From Shigella phage SHFML-26, in sequence record KX130862: a stretch of DNA of 64,000 bases, one strand, 5' to 3'. How positions within the stretch are numbered: position 1 is the stretch's first letter; each line of letters begins with the position of its first letter. The notes under the pieces were generated by a model. It did not search any database, was not told the DNA's origin, and was given only the letters and a program-made list of their open reading frames with translations. A program made the position numbers and the translations under genes. Below are positions 23,043 to 43,447 of the stretch, piece after piece.

Positions 23043-23405
23043 TTAAAAGAATTTAAATTTTTTCTTTGACCTTTTATTAAATGCATCTTGTAGTTGCATT
23101 GTAATACATTTTTCTACATGAGGAGCTAACTCAGCTTTTCTTTCTTGGTCAAGAACAGCAAAGTCCATTACGACTTTTCCATCAACCCAATCTAATTTTG
23201 TCACATACACAATGTGTGTAGAACCGTCTTCTAGTTTAATGACAATCTCCTGGATAACATTTTCCATAGCGGATTTAATTATCTTAAGAGACTCATTAAA
23301 AAGACGTTCTTTTCTTTCTTCTTCCCCCTCCGAAGAGGGGGATTCATCGATAATTTCTAGATCTAAATCTAAATCATCTTTATTCATTAAATTCTTCCAT
23401 ATCAC
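23043..23405 (-). CDS. 40: gene 40-like protein (120 aa)
   Basis: Position between 41 and uvsX; size. Confidence 0.5.
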   Translation of the reverse strand: MIWKNLMNKDDLDLDLEIIDESPSSEGEEERKERLFNESLKIIKSAMENVIQEIVIKLEDGSTHIVYVTKLDWVDGKVVMDFAVLDQERKAELAPHVEKCITMQLQDAFNKRSKKKFKFF

Positions 23406-24561
23406 TTAACTGCTCGAGGTCAGTTTCTAAATCAGCAGCTGATTTACTTTTACTTTCTGGAGATTTAAATTTTTCAACCTTTGAGTTAATCAATTCATCA
23501 ACTTCAGCTTCAACAATTTCATTACTATCAATAGCACCTAACTGATAAGCACGTTTAATAGCATCTCGGAATGGTTGATGCTTAAATAAAGGACCCCAGA
23601 ATGTAGTGCAGTTGGTATCTTTTGCACGCCAAGATTTTTCTTCGCGAATCATCTCACCGGTTTCTTCATCAAGAAATTCACGAGCATACCAGCCATTTTT
23701 AGGTTTTACCACGAATCCTAATTCTAGAGCCATATCTAACAATCCAGAATAAGGATCGATACCACCGTCAAATTTAACATCAATAAAGAATTTACTTTTT
23801 TCTTTAACGGTACGAGATTTTTCTACATTTAGAACAAATTGATACCCCTGAAGATCGGAACCATCTTTAATCTGGCGCTTACCGATAATGAATACAGTAT
23901 CAGCCGAATACATTACGCCTGTACCACCTGTCATCACGGTTTTACTAAACATTTCGATTGTTTCAATTGTATGGTTAACCGCAACACATGGAATATTTTT
24001 AATGCTAAAATAAGGAGTAACAATACGGAATAATGACTTCAGTGATTTAGCACGAGTCATATCTGCCACAGATTTTTCATTCAAGGCATCTTCCGTTTCT
24101 TTCTTAGAAGCCATATTACCAATTGAGTCGATGAATACAATAACTTTTTCACCACGCTCAATAGCTTCAAGCTGATTCACCATATCAATTTTCAGCTGTT
24201 CAACTGACTGGATTGGTGTGTGAATTACTCGTTCCGGGTCAACTCCCATGGATCGCAAATAAGCTGGAGTAATACCAAATTCGCTATCATAGAATAGACA
24301 AACCGCGTCAGGATATTTGTTCAAATACGCCGCAACCATAGTCAAAGACATATTTGATTTAAAGTGTTTAGAAGGACCTGCAAAAATGGTTAAACCAGAC
24401 TGCATACCACCGTCAATCGCACCTGAAATAGCGATATTAAGCATTGGGATTTTTGTACGGATTACATCCTTTTCATTAAAGAATTTAGATGTAGTCAGTT
24501 CAGCAGTCATTTTAGAAGTGGAAGCTTTAATCAAACGGGATTTTAAATCTGCAATAGACAT
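23380..24561 (-). CDS. uvsX: UvsX recombinase (RecA-like)
   Basis: Walker A GPSKHFKS; recognised UvsX sequence. Confidence 0.9.
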   Translation of the reverse strand: MSIADLKSRLIKASTSKMTAELTTSKFFNEKDVIRTKIPMLNIAISGAIDGGMQSGLTIFAGPSKHFKSNMSLTMVAAYLNKYPDAVCLFYDSEFGITPAYLRSMGVDPERVIHTPIQSVEQLKIDMVNQLEAIERGEKVIVFIDSIGNMASKKETEDALNEKSVADMTRAKSLKSLFRIVTPYFSIKNIPCVAVNHTIETIEMFSKTVMTGGTGVMYSADTVFIIGKRQIKDGSDLQGYQFVLNVEKSRTVKEKSKFFIDVKFDGGIDPYSGLLDMALELGFVVKPKNGWYAREFLDEETGEMIREEKSWRAKDTNCTTFWGPLFKHQPFRDAIKRAYQLGAIDSNEIVEAEVDELINSKVEKFKSPESKSKSAADLETDLEQLSDMEEFNE

Positions 24562-24638: not shown

Positions 24639-25481
24639 TTAATCAACTGCTATTGGATGAATAGCATTAAACTTATGAAACGCTTCTGATTTTTCTTTGC
24701 GCGAAACACACATGCGAAGAACCTTTAATGGCTCGTCTTCTTCACCTAATGATTTTCGTTTTTCAATATTAGAAGTTTTCCAACGAGCTTGCTCTGGAAA
24801 CTCTCTATTGATTTGCTCAAGCGCTCTATTATGTTTAGAATTACTACGAATTGAGCTACATCCGCCTGGAGCTTGCGCTTTTCCAGATACAACCAGATAT
24901 TTGAACAAGGCCAAATGCGGATAACCTTGATTAATTAAATTGAGAAATGCATACATATCTTCGCATAAATCAATTTTTCCATACCCAATTTGTTCTGTTG
25001 TAAGTTTTCCAAGGTCATACCAAGTATTCGTGAATCCATATGAATTTTCACGATAATTACCCCAAGATGAAGTAATTTTAAAAATTGGTAAACGAGCATG
25101 ACCATGATAATACCCGCAATCCATGGCATCTTCAACGTATTGAATCAATTCATAGAACTGTTCACGAGTTAGCTGATTAATTTTATCTACGCAGCGACGA
25201 TCATCTTTCTTTCGCATTGAACTCATACGAATAGTAGTATCATCATCAATCATCCAAATTCGTTGACCTGCATACATATCAGTAATTGCTTTACGAGTAC
25301 CAGCAATTCCGTTAACATCATCAGGAATAGTTATAATTTTAGCTCTAGACCCGTAAGCGTCATAATAAGCTTTTTCTTCGTGTTCACGCACTACAATATG
25401 AGGTTCATAATCAGTCGGAAACATATCAAGGGCAGAAACTGCCCCTACGCGTTGATAGCTTGGAATTACGAATTGAATCAT
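24639..25481 (-). CDS. glycosyltransferase (GT-A-like with DxD motif) in the DNA glucosyltransferase position
   Basis: MIDDD motif; ATG at 25479-25481 forms ATGA overlap with gene 42 stop. Confidence 0.6.
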   Translation of the reverse strand: MIQFVIPSYQRVGAVSALDMFPTDYEPHIVVREHEEKAYYDAYGSRAKIITIPDDVNGIAGTRKAITDMYAGQRIWMIDDDTTIRMSSMRKKDDRRCVDKINQLTREQFYELIQYVEDAMDCGYYHGHARLPIFKITSSWGNYRENSYGFTNTWYDLGKLTTEQIGYGKIDLCEDMYAFLNLINQGYPHLALFKYLVVSGKAQAPGGCSSIRSNSKHNRALEQINREFPEQARWKTSNIEKRKSLGEEDEPLKVLRMCVSRKEKSEAFHKFNAIHPIAVD

Positions 25482-26218
25482 TTCCACTCACCGTTATAAT
25501 CTTTTTTCGCAATATGAGTTTCGCCAGTTTTCCACCAATGGTCAACCAAATAAAAATGACGGGAATACACATGAAGGCTCCCGACATTCCATATAATGGA
25601 ACCTGCTTTATACTGACGAGTTGAATCACCTGCATTCAAATCAGATACTAATTTATCTAGTACGTATTTTTGCCATGCATAATCATTACGGAATCCGAAA
25701 ACCACGTCATTTGAACGCATGCTTACTACTGCATTGACTTTCTTGTCACGAATCAGATACTGTACGGTATTCGTACACATGAAATCTGACATACCATCTT
25801 TATTGTAGTCAAACTGCATAGATGGACGAGTATAAATCATGATACCACGTCGAGAATCAGGATTTTGACCAAGTTCAGCTAGACACATATCATATTGAGC
25901 ATAGTTATCTTCTGACCAGATAGCCCAACCATAATTCGAGTTAATTTCACCTTTAGAAGATGCTACCTGCTGCCAAATCTTTGGTGTTTCACCTGGAATA
26001 TCTTTAACAAACAAGCTCTTAGATTTATACCATTCAAGTTCACGCTGGATGTATTCATCATTAAGAGCGCCAAAAATAAACGGTTCATCTGCTACAAATG
26101 ATGCGCCAATAATTTCAATAGTTTTAACGCCAGTTTTATCAACTACGAAATCTTTTTCTTTTAATGCAAGCCCCAAATGAAGACGGATTTCTTCAACTGT
26201 CATAGAGTCACTAATCAT
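25478..26218 (-). CDS. 42: dCMP hydroxymethylase (gene 42)
   Basis: 246 aa; thymidylate-synthase-like fold; recognised sequence. Confidence 0.9.
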   Translation of the reverse strand: MISDSMTVEEIRLHLGLALKEKDFVVDKTGVKTIEIIGASFVADEPFIFGALNDEYIQRELEWYKSKSLFVKDIPGETPKIWQQVASSKGEINSNYGWAIWSEDNYAQYDMCLAELGQNPDSRRGIMIYTRPSMQFDYNKDGMSDFMCTNTVQYLIRDKKVNAVVSMRSNDVVFGFRNDYAWQKYVLDKLVSDLNAGDSTRQYKAGSIIWNVGSLHVYSRHFYLVDHWWKTGETHIAKKDYNGEWK

Positions 26219-27195: not shown

Positions 27196-29895
27196 TCAGC
27201 CAAACAGGAAGTCTAACGAAGCTTTTTCTTCATAGTCCATACCTGCCGATTCACACATACCTGCAAGCGGCTTAACAAACGATTTTTGGAACAAAGTTGA
27301 GTAGTCAATCCAAGATAGTACGTCAGAACGAATTTCTTTTGGAAGTTCTGTACCTGATGGCCAAGCAATGCACTTGTCACCAAATGGATTTCCTTCACGT
27401 AATGGAAGAACCATTACTTTATTTCCATCCAAAATTGGAGCTACACCTAAACCACTAACAGCTCGACGATAAGTTAGCACACCACGAATATGGAATGGGC
27501 ATTTAAATCCTGGCCAACCTTTATCATCATATTTCGCTATATCGTTCGCAGTTTTTACTTCAGCAATAACTTTATAGTCAAGTTGACGATATTCTTTCTC
27601 GAAGTTCTTGTAGTATTCTTGGACAGACTCTTCACCTTCCTGAAGAATACGACGAATACTTTCTTCGAGAGCTTCTTGCACCGCTTTTGGTGTTGAACTC
27701 TGCTGAGTTTCCATACCCATGATTTTTAGATGCGGTTCGGCAAATCGCTTATCTTCCATATCATAAACGTTCAGAGCATAACGTTTTTTCGCTTTCCAAA
27801 ATCCACCAACACCCTTTGAACCAAGCGGAGGGCAAGAAATAGCTTCACGGTCCATATGCATCAGATGCTCGCGGTTATTCATATAATCACATAACTCACG
27901 ATATGCAACATCAATCATAGGTTCCATCTTTTTCTTACCAAACTGATTCATGAATTCAACTAAATCATTTTGTTCTTTAAAGCGGTCAAGACCTACTTTT
28001 TCAATTACTTTATCTACACAAACATATACCGAATCAGTATCACCTGCTGCGATGAAATCTTCACCATTAGTTCCACATACTTTATTCAGATATTCATTAA
28101 TTTTGCGAGCAATCCATTGAATACCGACTTGACCGAAAATTGTGATAGCAGTAGCATTTCGCAAATCATAGTAGCGGAAATGAATATTACCAAGAGCACC
28201 ATAAAGACTGTTAATAAGAATTTTACGGTTCAACTGATTTGTGTTAGCAAGTGTAGCAGCTTTTTCACATTCTTCAATCAGACTGTTAAGAACAGATTCG
28301 GTGTAATTCGATAATTCGTTTAAGAAATCATCATTGAACTTAACATATCGTTCAACTTCCGGTTTAGTTGAACAGGACCCTGCGCCTTTCATAATAATCT
28401 TTTTAATAGCTTCGGCATTCATTTCTTCAGCGAACATTTTCTTTTTCCAATCTTTACGCTGGAAAAATACTTTAGCGATTTCCTTTGGAATGATACCTTC
28501 TTGATGCTTATCATACATCCATCCATTCGGAGAACAAGAATATTCATCACTCGGTTTAGGAGCTGTTCCTGCGATATATTCATGAATTGGATGAACTTTA
28601 AACTGCCCACGAATAGTCTCAGGACTAATGTTAACCTGACGAATAATGCTCGGATACAGAGACGTCAAGTCAAAACTCATAATATATCGACGAGCAATTG
28701 GTTTAGGTTCAAATACAAATGCACCCGGAAAACTCTGTTTAACGTGCGAACCTTGTTGAGGAATAACCTTATGTTCACCTTTCAATGAGTTAAAAATAAT
28801 AGCATCCCAAGTTTTAATAGGACTCATTACACCAGAAAAAGGCATTTTAGCATAATAAGACATACTTAAAACTAGATCGATAAACCCGCGAATTTTATCA
28901 ATTGCTTGAACTGATTCTACGTCAATGATGTTATAACTAATGTATCGTTGATGATTAGTCTCACGAAGTTTATTAATAGGACCGTCGTATGGTAATTTAC
29001 CTTTTTTGGTTTCATGTTGAGCAACTGATTCCAAAGAGAATGACGGCAAATTAGTAAATGCGAATTTCTTATACAAATCTAAATAATCAAGAATAGATAC
29101 GCCATCAATAGAATAAATTTCTTTGCTACCGTACATATTTTGAATTAGTTTAGATTTTACCCGACCGATTGGAGAGAAACGTTTCATACTGCGTTCACCT
29201 AGAATCATTTTAACGCGATTCATAATATATGGAACGTCAAACCCCTCAATATTCCAACCAGTAAAAATAGCAGGTCGTTTCTGTTCCCAGAGATTGATAT
29301 ATTCCATGAGCATATCACGCTCATTATCGAATGGCATATAAATTACTCGGTCAAGAATTTCTTGAGGAACTTCATCACCACCTTCACAGTCAAGCTTAGC
29401 AGCTAACTTTGCATCCCATTTTGATACTGAACCGTACATTGAATTCAAAAGGTCGAAAACATAAAAACGATCATCAATTGAATCGTAATGAGTGATAGCA
29501 TCAATTTCATATTCAGCTTTCATTGGGTCAGGAAATTTATCACCAGTAACCTCAATGTCACAGTTAGCTACACGAACAAATTTTCGGTCATAAACAATTT
29601 CTGAACCATACGTATCACTGATATAAGCGAGTTTAAAATCGTTCATACCGAGAGCTTCGAGACCGATGTCTTCCATTCGTTTCATCCAATCTCGAGCATA
29701 TTTCATTGATGGTAAATTTTTGAGGTAGCGCTAGTTTTTACCATAGATGTCTTTGTACTTTGACTCTTCCTTACAATGCCTAAACATAGTTGGAAGATAT
29801 TCTACTTCACGAGTACGTTCCTTTCCGTTTTCATCAATATAACGTTCAACAATGTTATTTCCGACTGTTTCAATAGAGATATAAAATTCTTTCAT
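27196..29895 (-). CDS. 43: DNA polymerase (gene 43, family B), interrupted by in-frame TAG at 29731..29733 (codon 55); longest ORF 27196..29706
   Basis: ATG at 29893-29895 ([14 protein letters not shown]...); exo and pol motifs (FDIE, YGDTDS); translational operator hairpin upstream. Confidence 0.85.
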
Positions 29896-30196: not shown

Positions 30197-30976
30197 TTAA
30201 TTACCAATCGTATATTTAGGAACGAGTTTCCATTCATGCTTTTGTTTAAAAGAAATAACTCGGAAGTTATTAGTTAAATCTTTCATAAAAGTTCTTTGAC
30301 CAGGAACGATTTCAATCAGTCCCCAATCTTCTAATAGCCATGCAATCGAATCACGACGAACTTCATCTTCTTCTGTCATTTCAACTTGGCGACCATCCAT
30401 ACGAAGCATTTCTTTAAAATGAACGATATAGTGCTTGCAGATTTCAGTCAATCGACGAATCATCTGCTTCATCATTTCAATTTTATCTTCATCGGTCGGT
30501 TGACCGAACGTAATAACTCGGCAGCGTGACTGAAGTGGTTTAATAATACCATCAATATTATTAGCAGTAATAATAATACTGCAGTTTGAACTATAAGCTT
30601 CCATAAAGGAACGAAGATGTCGCTGAGACTCTGCTAACCCTGAGCGGTCAAATTCATCAATAACGATTACTTTTTGACGACCATCAAATGAAGCTGCACT
30701 AGCAAAATTAGTCAAAGGACCACGAACGAAATCAATTTTACAGTCTGATCCATTCACAAACATCATATCAGCATTTACATCATGACACAATGCTTTTGCT
30801 ACAGTTGTTTTACCTGTTCCTGGAGAAGGAGAATGAAGAATAATATGTGGAATTTTACCTTTACTTGTAATAGATTTAAAGGTTTCTTTATCAAAGGCGG
30901 GAAGAATACATTCATCGATAGTAGATGGACGATATTTCTGTTCAAGAATGTGTTCTTTTTCATTTACAGTAATCAT
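30197..30976 (-). CDS. 44: clamp-loader gp44 N-terminal 182 aa fused in frame to RegA C-terminal 77 aa (gene 62 absent)
   Basis: ATG at 30974-30976 behind GAGGA; Walker A GTGKTT, Walker B VIVIDEFD, SRC motif; tail YIVHFKEM...KYTIGN matches RegA C-terminus. Confidence 0.7.
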   Translation of the reverse strand: MITVNEKEHILEQKYRPSTIDECILPAFDKETFKSITSKGKIPHIILHSPSPGTGKTTVAKALCHDVNADMMFVNGSDCKIDFVRGPLTNFASAASFDGRQKVIVIDEFDRSGLAESQRHLRSFMEAYSSNCSIIITANNIDGIIKPLQSRCRVITFGQPTDEDKIEMMKQMIRRLTEICKHYIVHFKEMLRMDGRQVEMTEEDEVRRDSIAWLLEDWGLIEIVPGQRTFMKDLTNNFRVISFKQKHEWKLVPKYTIGN

Positions 30977-34110: not shown

Positions 34111-34965
34111 TCACAATGAAGAAAATTCTTTAACTAAAGCCTGTAATGAAGCCTCTATTGGATATCCATTCTTAACTAACATTTTCCTAAACATCACATG
34201 TTTAGGACGATTATATGATATCCACAATTCATACAATTTATCTTTATTATCCCAATGATAGCCTTTTCGTCGAGATGCTATATGAGCTTTTCTAATCTCC
34301 GGATTTTTCCAACTAGCAGCTACTGAATTTGATATAGCTATTTTATATTCAGGTTTTGATAAAGCAGCACGAACAGCCTTTTGGTGTTTAATTTTATTTT
34401 CTTCGTTATTAAACCATTCCCTTGAAGCCATTGAAATTTTTTGTTTTGTTTTAAAATTATTTAATCTTTCTTTGTTATCTTTCCTATTTTTTGCTACTGA
34501 AAAATATTTTAATGCCCTTTCTCTAGCAGCATTTCTATTTTGCGGATTTGAATAATATTGTTGAAGCCTTTTTGATATTGTGTCACTTACATCTTGTTTT
34601 ATAAAACTATATTCAGCAGCTATTAAATCAACTTCGGCTAAAGATAAATTTTTATATGTTTTTCCTGACATCATTCTATTTAAAGCATTTAGCATTTTTC
34701 CATTTTTACCTTTTGCTAATAAGAAATGTGCTTTAAAATGATTAAAATGACTTAAATTAACTAAATTCCATGTAGATTTTAAATATTCAGGAAATATTGA
34801 TTTAGGAAGCACGTGATGTGCTTCCGTTTTACCTGGAGTTTTAACAGTTGAATTCATAGAAATAAAATTAATGTAAGACTTGGCGTCTTCTTCACTCAAC
34901 GCTAATTTTTCAACTAATTCCTTTATTAAAAATTCATCATTAATGTCAAGTTTAAAATTCTTCAC
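34111..34965 (-). CDS. free-standing HNH homing endonuclease
   Basis: HNH-like motif (EAHHVLP...NLVNLSHFNHF); GTG start at 34963-34965 behind AAGGAA; inserted between 46 and 47. Confidence 0.65.
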   Translation of the reverse strand: MKNFKLDINDEFLIKELVEKLALSEEDAKSYINFISMNSTVKTPGKTEAHHVLPKSIFPEYLKSTWNLVNLSHFNHFKAHFLLAKGKNGKMLNALNRMMSGKTYKNLSLAEVDLIAAEYSFIKQDVSDTISKRLQQYYSNPQNRNAARERALKYFSVAKNRKDNKERLNNFKTKQKISMASREWFNNEENKIKHQKAVRAALSKPEYKIAISNSVAASWKNPEIRKAHIASRRKGYHWDNKDKLYELWISYNRPKHVMFRKMLVKNGYPIEASLQALVKEFSSL

Positions 34966-36579: not shown

Positions 36580-36606
36580 TATAAAGCTAAAGGGCCGAAG
36601 CCCTTT
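36580..36606 (-). terminator. stem-loop/terminator after a-gt
   Basis: AAAGGGCUUCGGCCCUUU overlapping a-gt stop. Confidence 0.45.
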
Positions 36607-37807
36607 ATTTTGTAATAATGTCAAACTGTTCTTTAAAGCAGAAGCTTGAATCTTGATGCTGATACAAAAATTCATAAGCTTTTTCTCGCTCACGGTCATA
36701 AAGAGCTCGGTCAGATGACAGTTCTTTAATACGTTCAAATGTTGATTCCATGTCATTTTCATCAAACCAAATGATACCGCTATCATGCGAGGTCAAAGGA
36801 GTATTATCAACACGGAATTTTAAATTTTCGCCAGTAGATTTCCAAAATACCGGAATTGTTCCACATGCACCAAGCTCGAGATGAGTATATTCTAAAGAAC
36901 GTTGTAGATATTTTTTGTCCAACTTACTCAACTGATAACCAAATCCGGATTTACTCATGCGTTCAAGCATTTCGCTATTTACATAACGGTCAAGAATTTG
37001 CGTTGGCAAATTAGGAGCAATTTTAATTTGGTCTACTTGATGAAGACGATAATACTCATATGGAATTCCTTTTTCTTTAATAGGAATGAACGCTGGAGAA
37101 CGTTCCAGACCTTCCATAATAGTACTTAGCCCAGCAGGTTTAAGATGTTTTTCGTGAAAATCAAACATCTGATAAAAACCTTTCCATGTAGTCGTACGAC
37201 CAATCCAGCGGTTGACATTCATGTTAATTTCAGAAACATCTTTCCAGTAGGTTGATCGAACCTTCGCAATATCCATAGGAGGCTGAAAGTTGTATACAGT
37301 CGGTGCTTCTTCAATATCATCAAACAAAGAAACAGTTTCTGGATACCATTCTTTCATCAGAACTTTATTAAAATCACCATTATCAGAATGACTAAAAATA
37401 ACATCAGCTCGACGAACAGTTTCTTCTAATCCCAAATTTCGGCGCAAAGAAAGAGAAGAATGGTCATGTTGATAAACTACAACACGAACTGAAGGTTTAA
37501 TGTTATCAATAATTTTTTTATAGTTATTAATAGTGTCTTCTTCGACTGAAGTAGCAGGAACTGAATTGATAATTAGAATATCACAATCATTTACCAGCTT
37601 AAGTGTTTTATCGTATTCTTTTGCCAATAAAACCGGAATTGAAAATGATTTATAATCATGTGCACAGTTACGAGTAAATGATTTATCTTTAGCATAAACC
37701 AAAGTTACTTCATGACCATTTTTAATAAACCAATCACGTTGCTCAAGAGAAAATTTAGTTACACCGCAACCTTCAAGACCTCGAGCCATAAAAATACATA
37801 CTTTCAT
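36605..37807 (-). CDS. agt: DNA alpha-glucosyltransferase (a-gt)
   Basis: 400 aa, GT-B-like; position after gene 47. Confidence 0.8.
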   Translation of the reverse strand: MKVCIFMARGLEGCGVTKFSLEQRDWFIKNGHEVTLVYAKDKSFTRNCAHDYKSFSIPVLLAKEYDKTLKLVNDCDILIINSVPATSVEEDTINNYKKIIDNIKPSVRVVVYQHDHSSLSLRRNLGLEETVRRADVIFSHSDNGDFNKVLMKEWYPETVSLFDDIEEAPTVYNFQPPMDIAKVRSTYWKDVSEINMNVNRWIGRTTTWKGFYQMFDFHEKHLKPAGLSTIMEGLERSPAFIPIKEKGIPYEYYRLHQVDQIKIAPNLPTQILDRYVNSEMLERMSKSGFGYQLSKLDKKYLQRSLEYTHLELGACGTIPVFWKSTGENLKFRVDNTPLTSHDSGIIWFDENDMESTFERIKELSSDRALYDREREKAYEFLYQHQDSSFCFKEQFDIITK

Positions 37808-42149: not shown

Positions 42150-42620
42150 TTAATCATGTTTCCACACCCCATCGGTATTTGACCAAAGTCGCTGATTATC
42201 TGATCCTCGCCACAGCTTTTTAGTCGGAAGATTTTTCTCATACTTCCCATCAATAATAACATCAACATATTTAAGCATTTCTAGCTGTTTAATATCTTCA
42301 AACTTATATCCTGTCCACAACCAAATGCTTTTATTGGGATAAAGATTTTTAATAGTTTGAACCACAGAGTGAATCACGTCTCTGTTATCAGGATAAAGAG
42401 GGTCTCCTCCAGTTATAGTTAATCCTTCTATATAATCATTATTCAAACATTCAATCAATTGTTCTAGTGTTTCACCGGTGAATGGAATACCATTTCTAGC
42501 ATTCCATGTTGATTTATTATAACACCCTTCACATTTATGCAAACAACCTGTAACGAAAAGAACAGTTCTGCAACCAGGGCCATTCACAAAGCAGCACGGG
42601 TATATTCTGTCATAATTCAT
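42150..42620 (-). CDS. nrdG: anaerobic ribonucleotide reductase activating protein NrdG (radical SAM)
   Basis: Cys-rich radical-SAM-like cluster; start moved to MNYDRIY (ATGA overlap with upstream gene). Confidence 0.8.
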   Translation of the reverse strand: MNYDRIYPCCFVNGPGCRTVLFVTGCLHKCEGCYNKSTWNARNGIPFTGETLEQLIECLNNDYIEGLTITGGDPLYPDNRDVIHSVVQTIKNLYPNKSIWLWTGYKFEDIKQLEMLKYVDVIIDGKYEKNLPTKKLWRGSDNQRLWSNTDGVWKHD

Positions 42621-43447
42621 AATAATATCCAATTTTTCCAAGCTTCATCAGTAGAATTACAGCGTTTTAGTATAAGATGTCTAGAAACTTTTATGGCATT
42701 TGAGCACTTTTTAATTGAATCATATTTAATACCGTCAACTGAAACGGTTTTGCTAGTTGGAGAAATTTTTCCATACATTGGATTTTTTGAACCAACTTGA
42801 AGTCCTTTTAAAGCTTTTGAAAGCTTTTGTCTAGATTCCAATGACATGGGAGAATTCTTTTTACCTTCAATAATTCGCTTGCGATGAAGTTCGCGTTCTT
42901 CTTCACTCAAAGAATTGTAATATTTTTTAACACCGTTTGATATAGATAATTTATCTTTCTCAGACCGCTCTCCAGCTAATTTACTTCTAACATCTTTTCG
43001 CTTCATAGCTATGCTTACGGCTTTATTTAAATTTGCTTGATGCTCTGGCGTACGTTTATATTTCTTTAAAGCACGTGAAATAGCTATTTTAGTTTCTTCT
43101 GTTCTCTTTTTACCTTTATTTGCTAAACTATTTTTGTGGCGATGTTCAAGTGTCTGTTCATAGGCAGTTCCACCTTTTCCACCAGGTTTAATATTATATG
43201 TATTTTCTTTTAGACAATACTCTTCAGTTACAAGTTCAGCTTCTTTATCATACATTTGCTTTTCATTATCAAAAACATATAAAATTTCTTTATAAAAATT
43301 TTTTCTACCATATTTTAATAAAGCAGCACGAATCAATGTTCCTGATCCCATATAACCGTCATTTATATTATCGGTGCTATGCGCACCGATATATTCCTTT
43401 GAATTAATTATATTTGTTATTTTATAAATTATATAATACCTATGCAT
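42617..43447 (-). CDS. free-standing GIY-YIG homing endonuclease
   Basis: N-terminal GIY-YIG motifs (YYIIYKITN...EYIGAHS...YMGSG); overlaps nrdG start and nrdD end. Confidence 0.7.
   Translation of the reverse strand: MHRYYIIYKITNIINSKEYIGAHSTDNINDGYMGSGTLIRAALLKYGRKNFYKEILYVFDNEKQMYDKEAELVTEEYCLKENTYNIKPGGKGGTAYEQTLEHRHKNSLANKGKKRTEETKIAISRALKKYKRTPEHQANLNKAVSIAMKRKDVRSKLAGERSEKDKLSISNGVKKYYNSLSEEERELHRKRIIEGKKNSPMSLESRQKLSKALKGLQVGSKNPMYGKISPTSKTVSVDGIKYDSIKKCSNAIKVSRHLILKRCNSTDEAWKNWILL

Follow-up and report, generated by a model that had tools for sequence, protein, structure and literature searches.

The transfer of a second glucose onto the DNA of T-even phages is an enzyme activity known since the 1960s, and the enzyme family was defined years ago. 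In T2 and T6 this second glucose is joined to alpha-glucosyl-5hmC by a beta-1,6 linkage, which yields gentiobiosyl-5hmC (PMC6024577, PMC13216743, PMC13390438), the share of cytosines so modified being about 5% for T2 as against about 72% for T6 (PMC6024577). Wild-type T6 DNA is not degraded by the Brig1 glycosylase, and deletion of ba-gt from T6 leaves alpha-glucosyl-hmC only and renders the phage more sensitive to Brig1 (PMC11078745). The TET-associated glycosyltransferases (TAGTs) form a structural sister group of GT2, and an AlphaFold3 model of the T6 TAGT has a GT-A fold and clusters beside GT2 (PMC13216743). Most glucosylating phages carry either an alpha-GT or a beta-GT together with a TAGT; alpha-GT and beta-GT occur together in only 6 of 753 genomes, T4 being the rare case (PMC13216743). 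The position of the TAGT is syntenic with that of T4 beta-GT, and environmental Tequatrovirus phages with alpha-GT and TAGT have been found to contain 5-hmdC and its alpha-glucosyl and alpha-gentiobiosyl forms, in ratios of 1:2:2 or of about 1/3 : trace : 2/3; the beta-glucosyl form was not found in these phages, and all of them were cut by the GmrSD-family enzyme BrxU (PMC13390438).

The DNA analysed here, a stretch of 64,000 nucleotides to which we refer as the window, comes from the T4-like (Tequatrovirus) genome of Shigella phage SHFML-26 (KX130862). Between gene 42 and uvsX it carries an open reading frame that is, with very high probability, an intact T2/T6-type beta-glucosyl-HMC-alpha-glucosyltransferase (ggt, also called ba-gt), a member of the TAGT family serving the di-glucosylation pathway set out below. 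The gene, its neighbours and its partner glucosyltransferase are:

24639..25481, minus strand: ggt (ba-gt) coding sequence, 280 aa plus stop, 843 nt, ATG at 25481; product assigned from sequence, profiles and an AlphaFold2 model as beta-glucosyl-HMC-alpha-glucosyltransferase, Pfam TAGT family, GT-A fold
25478..25481, minus strand: ATGA overlap of the gene 42 stop and the ggt start (A-ATG-A), read directly from the sequence
25478..26218, minus strand: gene 42, dCMP hydroxymethylase, 246 aa, Pfam Thymidylat_synt at E 8.7e-16
23380-24561, minus strand: uvsX, on the other flank of ggt
36605..37807, minus strand: alpha-glucosyltransferase (a-gt), 400 aa, sharing 91% identity with T4 a-gt across 400 aa

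The order of genes on the minus strand is 43 - imm.1 - imm - 42 - ggt - uvsX - 40 - 41, in which gene 42 is the orthologue of the gene so annotated in T4, T6 and T2. An earlier note on this DNA had described an ORF of about 280 residues at 24639-25481 containing an IDDD motif and shorter than T4 beta-glucosyltransferase; the ORF list and the ATG at 25481 agree with this, the motif is found at residues 78-81 (I78 D79 D80 D81), and the protein has 280 residues against 351 in the T4 enzyme. The note had also placed the gene in the slot upstream of gene 42. The slot is correct, but upstream holds only in plus-strand coordinates: because all these genes lie on the minus strand, ggt is transcriptionally downstream (3') of gene 42. 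Counted from the first possible start, a GTG, the ORF would span 24639..25487 on the minus strand, the ATG being two codons further in; in T2, KMB23 and Ec_YwIITB1 the same ggt start is annotated, each with an 843-nt CDS and a 4-nt overlap with gene 42. The ATGA overlap probably couples translation of ggt to that of gene 42. Two plus-strand ORFs of 75 and 78 aa that overlap ggt were set aside because the minus-strand ORF fully explains the region. A promoter scan around ggt was uninformative, with 15 promoter-like sites where 9.7 +/- 3.4 were expected, and a terminator scan returned one terminator-like hairpin against 0.9 expected. A hairpin lies within ggt codons 12-18 (25427-25447, minus strand; TAGGGGCAG-TTT-CTGCCCTTG), with a stem of 9 bp including 5 G-C pairs and a loop of 3 nt, shortly ahead of the internal Met20 codon. 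It is kept in T2 and T6 and is flagged as terminator-like, yet one such site equals the chance expectation.

Several lines of evidence identify the product. By hmmscan, residues 2-277 match PHROG 842, named 'beta-glucosyl-HMC-alpha-glucosyltransferase', at E 1.9e-89, and residues 5-209 match positions 2-205 of the 205-position Pfam profile PF20691 (TAGT, TET-associated glycosyltransferase) with 38.8 bits against a gathering threshold of 27.5 bits; no NCBIfam model was found that matches either ggt or alpha-gt. The closest database protein is matched at E 4e-189, and the full-length gene is 90-99% identical in DNA (best 98.6%) to 473 deposited phage records, mostly Tequatrovirus, which puts the ORF far beyond chance; many of these records label it beta-glucosyl-HMC-alpha-glucosyltransferase. 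The protein matches that of phage Ec_YwIITB1 at 100% identity and differs by 3 substitutions from that of KMB23, by 4 from that of T2 (99% amino-acid identity) and by 5-6 changes across two records from that of T6 (98%). There are no indels against these four relatives, and we therefore consider the gene intact. The resemblance to the T6 and T2 genes (YP_010067197.1, BBC14657.1, AYD82639.1) extends to the slot (42 - ggt - uvsX), the length of 843 nt and the partner alpha-gt, which in the window is 99.8% identical to the KMB23 protein and 91.5% to that of T6. The proposal of the earlier note that this is a T2/T6-type second-glucose transferase is thus borne out by the PHROG 842 match and the 98-99% identity to the T6 and T2 enzymes. 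An arabinosyltransferase of the RB69 type was also considered, and was rejected because the protein is nearly identical to T2/T6 ggt and an alpha-gt is present.

The locus occupies the place that segA and b-gt share in T4, and T4 b-gt (NP_049658.1) resembles ggt in this position, in the use of UDP-glucose and in forming a beta linkage on modified phage DNA. A BLASTP comparison with T4 beta-gt, which the earlier note had suggested, gave E 3.4, and homology was not found. The T4 enzyme has a GT-B rather than a GT-A fold (PMC13216743), and it acts on bare 5-hmC, whereas ggt would act on alpha-glucosyl-5hmC. In T4 the homing endonuclease gene segA lies next to b-gt, and no counterpart of it was found beside ggt in the window. 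When T4 beta-gt was searched against the whole 64-kb window by tblastn, the best match had E 1.2 and beta-gt was not found; a BLASTP comparison of ggt with T4 alpha-gt gave E 0.59. The presence of a-gt and ggt and the absence of beta-gt within the 64-kb window amount to the T2/T6 arrangement.

The family to which ggt belongs was assembled from two database searches as 51 members, of which 45 were aligned. A high-confidence AlphaFold2 model built on the 45-member alignment (mean pLDDT 92.7, pTM 0.90) has alternating strands and helices that form a single Rossmann-like alpha/beta/alpha domain, with the DDD directly after the strand at 74-78. A Foldseek search of the PDB with this model returned WrtF, AvpGT, TarS, TarP and K4CP chondroitin polymerase at E about 1e-6, and no GT-B enzyme was among the PDB matches, so that a GT-A-type DxD enzyme with a fold unlike that of T4 beta-gt, as the earlier note had read it, also emerges from the model. 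Among predicted viral structures (BFVD) the top match is the protein of the same name from Klebsiella phage PKO111 (TM 0.96), followed by TAGT-domain proteins. A search of PDB sequences with the single ggt protein gave chance matches only (E at least 0.78, His-tag artefacts), and the 45-member profile gave one marginal match, to the N-terminal 90 residues, in 9jma (E 0.031), in an alignment that pairs IPSY-R...DDD of ggt with IPTYNR...DDD. This marginal profile match is the sole sequence link to CAZy GT2, and Pfam Glycos_transf_2 gave no match. The solved GT2-type inverting GT-A enzymes (TarS and TarP of S. aureus, WrtF, AvpGT 9jma and E. coli K4CP) are 7-16% identical to ggt and act on teichoic acid or glycans, in contrast to glucosylated DNA as the expected acceptor of ggt, which also lacks accessory domains. 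Neither the single-sequence nor the family-profile search of the PDB found a solved structure for a member of the family, and the roles assigned to residues here are consequently drawn from the model and from analogy. The motifs concerned are:

25449..25466, minus strand: IPSYQR, residues 6-11, first beta-strand (E3-7 in the model) with the following loop; where a GT-A enzyme is expected to bind the nucleotide
25239..25247, minus strand: DxD motif D79-D80-D81, invariant in 45/45 family members, aligned to the DDD of 9jma; expected to bind a divalent metal and the UDP diphosphate
24951..24962, minus strand: E174-D175-M176-Y177 (ED-x-Y), with D175 in 39/45 (87%) of the family; candidate catalytic base region

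I6, R11, R63 and D79-D81 are invariant in all 45 aligned members and are all present in the window's ggt, and P7, Y9, R32, Y39, T62 and R212 are nearly invariant in the family. An 'R...DDD...EDY/F' active-site motif has been described for phage GT-A DNA glycosyltransferases (bioRxiv 10.1101/2023.12.21.572611), and R11, R63, D79-81 and D175 of ggt fit this pattern. The likeness to the PF20691 family thus lies in the invariant R...DDD...(E)D motifs and the predicted fold. The context differs: the partner pathway in the window consists of a thymidylate-synthase-type dCMP hydroxymethylase and alpha-gt, whereas that of the TAGT family is a TET/5mYOX dioxygenase, and the expected acceptor of ggt is a sugar already on the base, whereas other TAGTs are described in the literature as modifying the base hydroxyl itself.

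In the pathway that we propose, gene 42 would make hydroxymethyl-dCMP, replication would incorporate it as 5-hmC, and a-gt (36605-37807) would place an alpha-linked glucose onto most of the 5-hmC, so providing the acceptor for ggt. The latter would then use UDP-glucose as donor to attach a second glucose at the 6-OH of the first, with inversion, so that the base ends up carrying the beta-1,6 disaccharide gentiobiose. During this reaction UDP would be held by the IPSY-R loop and R63, the metal-diphosphate would be bound by D79 and D81, and D175 (or E174) would serve as the base, activating the acceptor hydroxyl. The bulkier sugar would alter which host defences are able to act, and would partly shield the DNA from Brig1, a glycosylase specific for alpha-glucosyl-hmC. 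Both the chemistry of ggt and the defence phenotype are carried over from the literature on orthologues. On the basis of gene content, the phage DNA is predicted to contain unglucosylated 5-hmC, alpha-glucosyl-5hmC and gentiobiosyl-5hmC, and to be free of beta-glucosyl-5hmC because no beta-gt is present in the 64-kb window. A beta-gt elsewhere in the genome is improbable, as judged from the 6 of 753 genomes in which alpha-GT and beta-GT co-occur (PMC13216743). How much of the DNA is di-glucosylated does not follow from the sequence, and the amount varies widely among relatives. The set of glucosyltransferases of a T-even phage predicts its DNA chemistry, and the predicted chemistry bears in turn on sensitivity to Brig1 and to the GmrSD/BrxU family and on the ease with which the DNA can be cut or sequenced, which is of use in annotating phages and in picking phages against defended hosts. 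The ggt of the window is a correctly read, already known and ordinary member for T-even phages. No new biology is added by its activity, family, fold, synteny or defence role, since the GT-A fold, the synteny, the measured modifications and the partial protection against Brig1 have all been published.

Alternative accounts of the gene must be weighed against this one. Other TAGT or GT-A phage enzymes and the kinetoplastid base-J glucosyltransferase modify their bases directly, phage GT-A enzymes that act directly on 5hmC have been described (bioRxiv 10.1101/2023.12.21.572611), and a solitary TAGT without alpha- or beta-GT occurs in many phages (PMC13216743), all of which would accord with ggt being a primary DNA glycosyltransferase that places sugar directly onto 5-hmC rather than a second-sugar transferase. 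We regard this as extremely unlikely, given the 98-99% identity to the T6 and T2 enzymes, the alpha-glucosyl-hmC that is the only form left when the T6 gene is deleted (PMC11078745), the presence within the window of an alpha-gt to supply the acceptor, and the lack of a beta-monoglucosyl product in relatives with the same gene set (PMC13390438). The genomic position, the slot of T4 b-gt, is the one point in favour of a diverged orthologue of T4 beta-glucosyltransferase, a GT-B enzyme making beta-glucosyl-5hmC; this reading is refuted by the BLASTP result (E 3.4) and the GT-A structural matches, to which the tblastn result (E 1.2) and the absence of GT-B matches to the model may be added, and we have dropped it as having practically no chance of being correct.

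A different concern is that ggt is present but non-functional or unexpressed in this phage, a decaying or silent copy. The same window holds disruptive lesions in genes 43 and 44-62-regA, and T2/T6 records with changes at family-invariant positions of ggt show that damage to this gene is tolerated in laboratory stocks. However, the ORF is intact and free of indels against four relatives, every family-invariant residue is present, an independently isolated phage (Ec_YwIITB1) encodes exactly the same protein sequence, and the overlap of the start codon with gene 42 is preserved, so a silent copy is very unlikely. An intact second-glucose transferase of the T2/T6 type is accordingly the reading that we retain.

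Comparison with the laboratory phages showed that ggt departs from the family at an otherwise invariant position in each deposited T2 and T6 record that was examined. The alleles are:

T2, records L005 (3295-4137) and L006 (286-1128): R11H (CGT>CAT), in two independent records
T6 MH550421, record L001 (7138-7980): Q10stop (TAG), private to MH550421
T6 NC_054907, record L007 (135-974): GATGAT in place of GATGATGAT, giving DD rather than DDD and a protein of 279 aa

The CDS of T6 MH550421 is annotated from Met20 (261 aa) because of the TAG at codon 10. The consensus Q10, R11 and DDD is retained by the window as well as by KMB23 and Ec_YwIITB1, so that the ggt of the window holds the family consensus where the laboratory-strain records deviate (R11H; Q10stop; DD). 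The contrast in gentiobiosylation between T2 and T6 is classical, and to our knowledge it has never been explained mechanistically. It is conceivable, although we think it rather unlikely, that these changes are functional, with R11H being hypomorphic and explaining the ~5% of T2 as opposed to the ~72% of T6, and with selection on ggt relaxed or negative in laboratory stocks. Were this true, the phage of the window would be a full di-glucosylator, T6-like or higher.

Elsewhere in the window two replication loci are altered. Gene 43 (DNA polymerase; minus strand, ATG at 29895) is disrupted at 29698-29733 where, relative to T4, T6, KMB23 and Ec_YwIITB1, three single-base insertions (plus-strand 29713, 29726 and 29732) and a G>T change (29700) fall within about 35 nt and jointly create an in-frame TAG at codon 55 (29731-29733), after which the frame is restored; the stretch affected reads N-C-A-P-Q-K-F-P-S-M-K-D in relatives. 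The lesion was not found in those four phages nor in any of the 172 matching phage records, and an exact search of IMG/VR with the aberrant gene 43 29-mer gave no match. In addition, the window lacks about 1.1 kb that KMB23 and T4 possess; the deletion is in frame, has its junction at ~30432 and has created a fused ORF (30197-30976, minus strand) composed of roughly residues 1-182 of gp44 and roughly residues 46-122 of RegA. With it the clamp loader is lost, as gene 62 is gone and gene 44 lacks its C-terminal part; the gene 44-regA junction is spanned by none of the 503 matching phage records. Since the genes struck by the two lesions are essential for replication, the genome of origin may be defective, engineered or mis-assembled, or the changes may be a sequence artefact; ggt itself is intact.

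Two further ORFs on the minus strand are probably homing-endonuclease genes, and both occupy positions that are empty in T4:

34111-34965, minus strand: 284-aa ORF between genes 46 and 46.1
42617-43447, minus strand: 276-aa ORF between nrdG and nrdD

The first is annotated as 'homing endonuclease' in KMB23 and as 'T6ORF054' in T6, and is weakly similar to T4 MobB (E 2e-6). The second corresponds to segH in the T6 annotation and shares 48% identity with T4 SegA over the N-terminal part of the latter.
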